Made by a program: the position numbers and the translations under genes. DNA of 64,000 nucleotides from a virus (Duplodnaviria; Heunggongvirae; Uroviricota; Caudoviricetes), in the IMG/VR virus record IMGVR_UViG_3300026560_000023. One strand, written 5' to 3'. Positions 16,562-18,085 of the stretch are shown in pieces. The stretch's first letter is position 1. Each line of letters opens with the position of its first letter. Under the pieces are notes generated by a model. It was not told where the DNA came from. It was given only the letters and a program-made list of their open reading frames with translations, and searched no databases.

Positions 16562-18085
16562 ATGACAGACGAAATAGTACTCGACTCTGACAACGCCGAG
16601 AACATCAAGATTAAAATTGGTGACATCGAGGACCTCACGGTCGAGCAAGTAGAAGAAATGGGAGCGCAGGAAGCCTTCGAGGATGGACAAATCCGTATTA
16701 TGCCAGATGGCCATCCTGGAAAGGGTAGCGTAGTCGGATTTACGATGCCCGTTGGAGACAAGGTTGTTCCTAACACTATCGGAGTAGATATTGGATGTGG
16801 CATGTTCGCTGCCCGTCTCCCGGGTTCAGCGGACCTCTACGATTGGGACCACCGTGCTATTCTCAACTCTGCTATCCGAGAGCGAGTCCCCGTAGGACGC
16901 AATGTCCATGAGAATAAGAGCTTCCACATGCACGAGGATTTCCCGTGGGAGGTATGCCAACGCAAGGTTGAAGAATTCAACGAGAATTCCGATTTCGAGG
17001 ATGTAGAAGTCGATTACGGTCCTGAGTATTTCGACGACCTCATGGAGCGTATCTACGGGTCTACGAAGAAATCGAAGTATGTCATCGACTCTGTTGGTAC
17101 TCTCGGAGGTGGCAACCACTTCATCGAAATCGGGGAGATGCAGAACCCCGGCGAGAGAGAAGGTTACCATCTTCCAGAACCCTTCTGGGTAATCGTACAC
17201 TCTGGCTCTCGAAACCTCGGGGCTACTATCTGTAGTTACTGGCAGGAGAAGGCTGCAGTGGTTCAGAAGGCAGATGAAATCCGAGAGCATCTTGCTCAGT
17301 TCCCGAGTGAATACATCAACTTCAACCCGGACGAAGAGTCCGATAGCGAGGTCTTAGACTGGGTCCTCGGAGCGCATGGGGACTTTGTTAACTATGAGCC
17401 AATCCCCCGCGAGGAGCGCGAGCGCTATAAAGATGAGTTAAAGGAATGCGTCCCAGAGAATGGAAAGAAGGGCACGGATTACGATTACCTCACAGGGGAA
17501 TATGCTCGTGGATACATAGCCGATATGATTTACGCGCAGACCTATGCGTCCCTCAGTCGCCGACACATGGCCGAGTCTGTCCTGGATGCGTGGTTCACGG
17601 AATTCTTCGACGGCTACTTCAAGGACGAAGAGGAACTCCCACCGGAGTTCAGAGGAGATGACCTTGGATTCGTCGAAGAAATCGAATCTGTCCATAATTA
17701 CATCGACTTCGAGGACCAGACTATCCGCAAGGGTGCTACGAGGGCGCACGATGGAGAGCGAGCAATCGTCCCGTATAACATGAGAGACGGCACTCTCATT
17801 GTTAGAGGCAAGGGCAACGGAGATTGGAATAACTCCATCAATCACGGTGCTGGCCGAGTCGATAGCCGTGGTTGGGCAGGAAACGAAATCACTCAAGAAG
17901 AAGCTAATGAGGAGATATATGAAGCAGACGTGTTTGCTTCTATCGTTCCTCGTGACGAGGCTCCTCACTCCTATAAGAACTGGGAAGCCATTGAGAAGGC
18001 AATGGCTCCTTCGGCAGAAATCGAGGAGCGCCTGGAACCTCTCATCAACATCAAGGCTCCGACTCGATATTACGACGAGGAATAG
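16562..18085 (+). CDS. rtcB: RtcB-family RNA ligase (3'-phosphate/5'-OH tRNA ligase)
   Basis: 507 aa; MPDGHPGKG, DIGCGM, GTLGGGNHFIEI and NHGAGR (catalytic His region) motifs; GGAGGT Shine-Dalgarno-like element upstream. Confidence 0.8.
   Translation: MTDEIVLDSDNAENIKIKIGDIEDLTVEQVEEMGAQEAFEDGQIRIMPDGHPGKGSVVGFTMPVGDKVVPNTIGVDIGCGMFAARLPGSADLYDWDHRAILNSAIRERVPVGRNVHENKSFHMHEDFPWEVCQRKVEEFNENSDFEDVEVDYGPEYFDDLMERIYGSTKKSKYVIDSVGTLGGGNHFIEIGEMQNPGEREGYHLPEPFWVIVHSGSRNLGATICSYWQEKAAVVQKADEIREHLAQFPSEYINFNPDEESDSEVLDWVLGAHGDFVNYEPIPREERERYKDELKECVPENGKKGTDYDYLTGEYARGYIADMIYAQTYASLSRRHMAESVLDAWFTEFFDGYFKDEEELPPEFRGDDLGFVEEIESVHNYIDFEDQTIRKGATRAHDGERAIVPYNMRDGTLIVRGKGNGDWNNSINHGAGRVDSRGWAGNEITQEEANEEIYEADVFASIVPRDEAPHSYKNWEAIEKAMAPSAEIEERLEPLINIKAPTRYYDEE

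Follow-up and report, generated by a model that had tools for sequence, protein, structure and literature searches.

Why a tailed virus of archaea should keep a gene for the RNA ligase RtcB amid its own tRNA genes is the question raised by a DNA stretch of 64,000 nucleotides (nt; IMG/VR record IMGVR_UViG_3300026560_000023), referred to as the window, which is from a Druskaviridae-like tailed virus of halophilic archaea. The open reading frame (ORF) at 16562-18085 on the plus strand encodes 507 amino acids plus stop and represents a full-length RtcB gene. Its prediction as a catalytically competent RtcB is fully supported, as family, active site and fold all agree. An earlier note on this DNA had recognised the ORF by four RtcB-diagnostic motifs and had considered for it either tRNA repair and counter-defence or the joining of interrupted viral tRNAs. 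The evidence assembled here favours repair.

Active site, fold and selection

All four motifs were located in the translated sequence, i.e., MPDGHPGKG at residues 47-55, DIGCGM at 76-81, GTLGGGNHFIEI at 179-190 and NHGAGR at 427-432, and the Pfam search proposed as a check of the assignment matched the RtcB family PF01139 with an E-value of 7.4e-55 and 187.3 bits, compared with a cut-off of 27. The active site was mapped by phmmer and profile alignments to the RtcB of Pyrococcus horikoshii (1uc2, 4dwr), in which Asp65 and His67 correspond to Asp49 and His51 of the window RtcB. The further active-site positions are the following:

16787-16798, plus strand: codons of Asp76 to Cys79 (DIGC), metal ligands, corresponding to Asp95 and Cys98 of P. 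horikoshii
17114-17119, plus strand: codons of Asn185 and His186, corresponding to Asn202 and His203
17198-17200, plus strand: codon of His213, corresponding to His234
17693-17698, plus strand: codons of His378 and Asn379 (HN motif), taken as His329 and Asn330
17843-17857, plus strand: codons of His428 to Arg432 (HGAGR), corresponding to His404 and Arg408

The equivalence of His378 and Asn379 was assigned by motif (SVHNY versus VAHNI), the HMMER register being 8 residues off at this place. His428 is the predicted nucleophile that accepts GMP. Across 23 aligned homologues with 41-78% identity to the window RtcB the mapped residues are unchanged, and Asp76, Cys79, His186, His213 and His378 are all kept, so that the loss of metal-binding Cys/His residues, against which the earlier note had cautioned, is not seen. 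An AlphaFold2 model built from the alignment of these 23 homologues has a mean pLDDT (predicted local distance difference test) of 88.8 and a pTM (predicted template modelling score) of 0.89. In a Foldseek search of the PDB with this model the best 16 matches are all RtcB enzymes (E-values of 1e-12 to 1e-19, probability 1.00, TM-scores of 0.50-0.63), and the first match that is not an RtcB follows at E=0.13.

The RtcBs of the strains L001 and L002 differ from that of the window by a single codon change, N102D, which is uninformative for dN/dS, the ratio of non-synonymous to synonymous substitution rates. Selection was instead assessed with three more distant relatives at 58-77% protein identity, for which the ratio of non-synonymous to synonymous differences per site (pN/pS) is 0.17-0.30. 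Non-synonymous differences amount to 0.14-0.27 per site in these comparisons and pS to 0.80-0.92, with synonymous sites saturated. The ratios point to strong purifying selection on RtcB, which, together with the invariant catalytic residues, excludes the reading as a host-derived pseudogene that had been allowed for earlier.

Affinity to bacterial-type RtcB enzymes

The annotated proteins closest to the window RtcB are those of cultured haloviruses, i.e., of HGTV-1 (44% identity), of HCTV-1, HCTV-5 and HCTV-16 (41-42%) and of the HF1/HF2 group (38-39%), with matches spanning 94-98% of its length. Beyond this halovirus clade the nearest RtcBs are those of Bacillus, Listeria and Clostridium phages and of bacterial genomes, with 30-34% identity over about 95% of the length and E-values of 1e-48 to 1e-69, compared with about 20% identity and a phmmer E-value of about 1e-11 for the splicing-type enzyme of P. 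horikoshii. A clade member encoded on a Halococcus chromosome amid transposase genes (P0079) is just as remote from the splicing-type enzyme. The window RtcB does not reach the equivalog cut-offs of NCBIfam, scoring 99.1 bits versus 407 for PRK09588 (E. coli-type) and 72.2 bits versus 271.8 for TIGR03073 (PrfH-associated RtcB). Judged by these scores it is a distinct subfamily below every NCBIfam RtcB equivalog cut-off, and by sequence affinity it belongs to a virus-borne, bacterial-type halovirus clade and is not an orthologue of the archaeal housekeeping splicing ligase. This bacterial-type lineage favours a function in RNA repair or counter-defence over one in splicing.

Setting in the tRNA island and expression

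The observation that RtcB sits between tRNA genes was borne out: the gene lies within a run of 30 tRNAs on the same strand, flanked by tRNA-Met(cat) at 16479-16551 and tRNA-Asp(gtc) at 18791-18865. ARAGORN reported 29 of these tRNAs, and tRNA-Lys(ctt) at 20406-20478 was found with Rfam and also by ARAGORN at a relaxed threshold. The features that bear on the setting and expression of RtcB are the following:

10116-21500, plus strand: tRNA island with 30 tRNA genes for all 20 amino acids and interleaved small ORFs
16438-16452, plus strand: degenerate copy, with 12 of 15 bases, of the AT-rich core GGTATATTTATTATA of the promoter-like repeat, read from the sequence, ending 27 nt before tRNA-Met
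16479-16551, plus strand: tRNA-Met(CAU), elongator-type (ARAGORN; Rfam, 69 bits), its end 10 nt upstream of the RtcB start codon
16553-16558, plus strand: GGAGGT, Shine-Dalgarno-like, read from the sequence, its end 3 nt upstream of the RtcB start codon

The AT-rich 17-mer TCGGTATATTTATTATA occurs in 14 copies in the window, where 0.1 would be expected, spanning positions 708-25620 (examples at 10190, 10792, 11442, 15279, 18752, 19664 and 20082), and the copies start 38-51 nt and end 23-33 nt upstream of a tRNA 5' end or an ATG. The motif resembles the intergenic promoter-bearing repeats of HF2 and is probably the promoter of the virus, which would imply leaderless transcripts. In the related contigs L021, L022, L024 and L025, whose RtcBs are 58-77% identical to that of the window, tRNA-Met is likewise followed by RtcB at a distance of 1-10 nt, which makes five lineages together with the window. 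As this close junction recurs across lineages, we infer that RtcB is likely co-transcribed with the upstream tRNA-Met.

RtcB as a putative RNA repair enzyme

It is fairly probable that RtcB reseals host and viral tRNAs, and perhaps other RNAs of translation, that are cut by nucleases during infection. Probably transcribed with tRNA-Met from a copy of the AT-rich promoter-like repeat, the gene would form part of a translation-maintenance module that includes the 30 tRNAs. In a reaction dependent on GTP and Mn2+, His428 would be guanylylated and GMP would be transferred to the RNA 3'-phosphate derived from the 2',3'-cyclic phosphate, whereupon attack by the 5'-OH end would restore the phosphodiester. 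The cut RNAs would originate from metal-independent ribonucleases, such as host anticodon nucleases, toxins or HEPN-type defence effectors, and resealing of the tRNAs would keep protein synthesis going in the infected cell.

In the 58 other ORFs of the window, Pfam detected no Archease, Pnkp, RtcA, RNA ligase, CCA-adding enzyme, TROVE or release-factor domain, and homologues of aRF1 and Pelota were not found by tblastn of the window. This confirms that no Pnkp or Archease lies nearby. The conclusion drawn from it in the earlier note, that the enzyme would have to use host cofactors, is misplaced: RtcB seals 2',3'-cyclic phosphate or 3'-phosphate ends to 5'-OH ends directly, without end-healing and hence without Pnkp, and the bacterial type does not need Archease, E. 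coli RtcB reportedly working without it (Tanaka & Shuman, 2011).

For RtcBs encoded beside tRNA arrays in phages, repair of tRNAs cut by metal-independent RNases has been put forward (PMC7824862), and halovirus RtcB was discussed as a probable tRNA-repair enzyme that may act on viral tRNAs where the virus encodes tRNAs as well (PMC8651126, Liu et al., 2021). Haloviruses with few or no neighbouring tRNAs, such as HCTV-1 and HF2, retain RtcB as well, so that viral introns cannot be the general reason for its presence. Repair or counter-defence thus stands as the best supported of the roles proposed earlier, on account of the phage/bacterial lineage and of this retention in tRNA-poor haloviruses. 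Several points weigh against it. In HGTV-1 a tRNA annotated with an intron lies 1.1 kb from RtcB, so that splicing may be possible within the family, and the co-location of RtcB with tRNAs may be mere clustering of translation-related genes. Moreover, the repair role of halovirus RtcBs is a putative one, and a tRNA-cleaving defence nuclease of the host is postulated.

A tRNA-like RNA downstream of RtcB

The joining of intron-containing or split tRNAs had been suggested with reference to an anomalous element at 19681-19915, which is delimited here as follows:

19702-19915, plus strand: tRNA-like non-coding RNA, recognised by fold, conservation and promoter-like repeat

The element is preceded by its own perfect promoter-like repeat at 19664-19680, which should place the start of its transcript near 19702. 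Homologues are present in L022 (7718-7948) and L023 (nhmmer E=5e-22) and, partially, at a contig end in L024 (6038-6230). Pattern scans of viral contigs and metagenomes returned only the same virus or chance matches, and a distant blastn search against phages matched only the T arms of unrelated tRNAs, so that the covariation described in the following rests on two and a half lineages. According to minimum free energy folding and RNAalifold, a leader with a 70-nt hairpin (two compensatory pairs) is followed by an acceptor-like stem of 7 base pairs (bp), which is GAAGGAA/UUCCUUC in the window and CUGAAGG/CCUUCGG in L022, and by a D-like stem in which the loop AGU...GGCA is interrupted by a structured insertion of about 72 nt. 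Inside this insertion lies AAUAARGUCCCUAAG.UAUAC, which shows the highest conservation of any block among the three lineages. The position of the anticodon arm is occupied by a tetraloop hairpin in the window, where a 7-nt anticodon loop is missing, and by a 10-bp stem with the loop UUGCCAC in L022, while the T arm is canonical with two compensatory pairs. Altogether, compensatory changes are found in the leader helix, the D stem, the insertion helix and the T stem.

Other interpretations of the element were tried and rejected. As an intron-bearing or split tRNA at 19681-19915 it yielded only a weak and inconsistent tRNA-Tyr(ata), both in the intron mode of ARAGORN and in a scan in which ARAGORN was given 19660-19930 with each possible single deletion of 8-229 nt. 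The intron mode (0-300 nt) found introns in none of the 30 viral tRNAs, and a scan for bulge-helix-bulge motifs around the insertion revealed none at positions common to the window and L022. Reading the element as a protein gene (ORF 19723-19917) is contradicted by 1- and 2-nt insertions or deletions relative to L022, and the product would be basic. A long-range CTCTGCC/GGCAGAG pairing in a first fold was discarded, as its 5' arm is the promoter-like repeat, upstream of the presumed start at about 19702. Rfam gave no family match for the element alone, YrlA included. The element is apparently a novel tRNA-like non-coding RNA and not a demonstrable interrupted tRNA, and lacking both an anticodon loop and a bulge-helix-bulge motif it does not support a function of RtcB in splicing; the proposal that RtcB joins such tRNAs in this virus was therefore not upheld.

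Together with the stop-interrupted aRF1 of the relatives described below, this RNA is more original than RtcB itself, and it is the most original item beside the gene. One may speculate, with little confidence, that it serves the viral RtcB specifically, as its partner or its substrate, and acts as a decoy for tRNA-targeting host nucleases that is re-ligated or as a Y-RNA-like scaffold resembling that of the bacterial rsr-yrlA-rtcBA operon. If this were true, tRNA island, tRNA mimic and RtcB would constitute a single anti-nuclease module in archaeal viruses.

Alternative functions

In another possible function RtcB would act as splicing ligase, joining the exons of interrupted viral RNAs, for example around the insertion of about 72 nt in the element at 19702-19915, after cleavage by the host splicing endonuclease. 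The intron-annotated tRNA near RtcB in HGTV-1 speaks for this, as do the tRNA-like acceptor, T and D stems of the element with a conserved insertion that splits the canonical D loop (AGU...GGCA). However, the ARAGORN intron mode and the single-deletion scan gave no intron-bearing tRNA, no bulge-helix-bulge borders the insertion at equivalent sites of window and L022, a tetraloop takes the place of the anticodon loop in the window copy, and it would be unusual for an intron to hold the block most conserved across three lineages. RtcB is also present in haloviruses without such elements, and archaeal hosts have their own splicing ligase, which altogether makes splicing an unlikely function. RtcB could instead reseal ribosomal RNA cut by ribotoxins, together with a release-factor-like rescue protein, for which bacterial RtcB2-PrfH is the precedent (PMC9304027). 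An aRF1 gene lies directly 3' of RtcB in L022 and L023 (RtcB 65% identical), and there is a weak similarity to TIGR03073 of 72 bits. This score is far under the cut-off of 271.8, the window is without aRF1 or Pelota by tblastn and without such a protein by Pfam in its 58 other ORFs, and the protein of L022 is a genuine aRF1 and not a PrfH-like rescue factor, so that its adjacency to RtcB may only reflect clustering of translation genes; repair of ribosomal RNA is thus slightly less probable still than splicing.

The structured spacers and the novel tRNA-like RNA within the island would fit a further function, in which RtcB circularises or matures viral non-coding RNAs such as these, and archaeal RtcB is known to circularise excised introns and intermediates of ribosomal RNA. 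No cleavage motif that would give RtcB-type ends was found, however, and RNase P and RNase Z leave 5'-phosphate and 3'-OH ends, which RtcB cannot join; such a processing role is improbable, more so than either of the two preceding functions. Hardly credible, finally, is that RtcB is inactive, either as a recently captured host gene or as a decaying remnant, for which nothing was found to speak: besides the invariant catalytic residues and the pN/pS of 0.17-0.30, the structural model is confident over the full length, the sequence is far removed from archaeal splicing-type enzymes and the gene order is kept across lineages.

Comparison with known systems

The RtcBs of cultured haloviruses (HGTV-1 gp229, HCTV-1, HCTV-5 and HCTV-16, HF1/HF2 and other Hafunaviridae) belong to the same clade and to the same virus class as that of the window, and the genes are annotated as RtcB or as tRNA-splicing ligase. 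HGTV-1 resembles the window in that a full set of 36 tRNA genes accompanies RtcB but differs in having Rnl2, a CCA-adding enzyme, LysRS and a TROVE protein, none of which was found in the 64-kb window. The window RtcB is embedded in the tRNA island and abuts tRNA-Met, whereas RtcB of HCTV-1 lies between a Hef-like nuclease and MazG and that of HF2 follows nucleotide-metabolism genes. In HCTV-1, the one Druskaviridae neighbourhood that was inspected, the 13.4 kb around RtcB hold a single tRNA gene, compared with 30 tRNA genes in the window.

Two observations concern the surroundings of RtcB in HGTV-1 (L026). A tRNA of 132 nt at 8513-8644, 1.1 kb downstream of RtcB, is annotated as tRNA-Asp plus intron, while ARAGORN reads it as Ser(gga) with a 36-nt intron instead. 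A TROVE (Ro-like) protein is encoded 4 kb downstream at 11486-13015, and the pairing recalls bacterial rsr-rtcBA operons. In two other relatives RtcB is directly followed by a gene for an aRF1 homologue that has NIKS and GGQ motifs (L022, 3819-4871; L023, 1860-2912). Its frame is broken by one in-frame TGA (L022, 4011-4013) in two samples, which could reflect stop-codon read-through or autoregulation of the release factor.

Outside the haloviruses the nearest relatives are RtcBs of phages, including SPO1-like Bacillus phages, P100-like Listeria phages, Clostridium phage phiCD211, mycobacteriophages and jumbo phages, which are full length with 26-32% identity and are often encoded with tRNA arrays, although their hosts belong to a different domain. 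The halovirus RtcBs are about 100 residues longer than those of phages, with a helical region at about 217-348. P. horikoshii PH1602 and human RTCB share fold and catalytic residues with the window RtcB, and the chemistry is presumably identical, but identity is only about 15-20%, TM-scores are 0.5-0.63 and no Archease is encoded in the window. Pnkp and Rnl1 of phage T4, acting against PrrC, are a functional analogy only, in that a viral enzyme reverses host tRNA cleavage; these are unrelated enzymes that combine end-healing with an ATP-dependent ligase for 5'-phosphate and 3'-OH ends, and no such Pfam match exists in the window. Bacterial RtcB2-PrfH has a translation-factor-like gene beside RtcB, as is found in L022 and L023 but not in the window. 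With bacterial rsr-yrlA-rtcBA the window shares the proximity of RtcB to a tRNA-like RNA, here 1.6 kb away, but there is neither a Ro/TROVE protein nor an Rfam match to YrlA. The likenesses to RtcB2-PrfH and rsr-yrlA-rtcBA are leads and not memberships.

The virus and further features of its tRNA island

The window encodes acidic proteins, among them a portal, a Mu-F-like protein, a tail-tube protein, an Hjc resolvase, an ERCC4 nuclease, an AAA+/VWA pair and an SPFH protein. Compared with the Druskaviridae HCTV-1, HVTV-1, HCTV-5 and HCTV-16, the N-terminal half of the portal is 56% and the tail tube 46% identical. The GC content is about 48%, which points to Haloquadratum-like hosts, and third codon positions are used evenly. 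Two IMG/VR viral contigs carry near-identical DNA (99.5% nucleotide identity) and represent the same virus, and a megablast search of the region against a phage collection gave no match.

The 30 tRNAs of the island form a near-minimal complete decoding set. Four-codon boxes are mostly read by one U34 tRNA, with an additional G34 tRNA for Val, Leu (CUN) and Ser (UCN), two-codon boxes ending in pyrimidines are read by G34 tRNAs, and two CAU tRNAs are present. The D stem of tRNA-Asn(gtt) at 20192-20267 apparently has 6 bp; this tRNA is not reported by the Rfam tRNA model and is matched, weakly, only by the tRNA-Sec model. For several spacers or leaders that separate tRNAs, folding gave hairpins with terminal stems of 6-10 bp, i.e., those at 19140-19209, 20120-20191 and 20345-20405 with z-scores of -3.4, -2.2 and -2.7, respectively, and they include a structured 72-nt leader that extends from a promoter-like repeat to tRNA-Asn.

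A PD-(D/E)XK endonuclease (PF11645, E=6e-37) at 20458-20886 on the plus strand abuts tRNA-Lys(ctt), and a GIY-YIG protein is encoded at the edge of the island at 9471-9899 on the minus strand; the two probably act as homing or mobile nucleases and shape the island. In strain L001, which is otherwise 99.5% identical, a 600-bp segment (window 14768-15366; about 8806-8835 in L001) is missing, which comprises one promoter-like repeat, a small ORF with a zinc finger and the 5' part of tRNA-Leu(taa). As the junction lies within sequence common to two tRNA-Leu genes, recombination between tRNA genes is suggested. The island is further flanked by a QueF-like protein (8984-9424, minus strand), which may serve to modify DNA or tRNA with 7-deazaguanine, by a YspA/SLOG-family protein (10452-10790, plus strand), by a thymidylate kinase (13458-14066, plus strand) and by an ATP-dependent DNA ligase (738-2207, minus strand), the sole ATP-dependent ligase among the Pfam matches of the window.

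Implications

The occurrence of RtcB together with viral tRNAs in haloarchaeal tailed viruses and its proposed role in repair are already published (PMC8651126), and since gene, family and proposed role are in the literature, the locus opens no new question about them. New are the embedding of RtcB in an island of 30 tRNAs in a Druskaviridae-like virus and the conserved junction of tRNA-Met and RtcB. The window thereby adds one more lineage of haloviruses, uncultured and of low GC content, that pairs RtcB with a near-complete tRNA set, and in it RtcB is apparently integrated into the transcription units of the tRNAs. This lends further weight to the idea that some viruses of archaea possess a self-sufficient module for the maintenance of translation RNAs, in parallel to the counter-defences of phages to tRNA-cleaving immunity.

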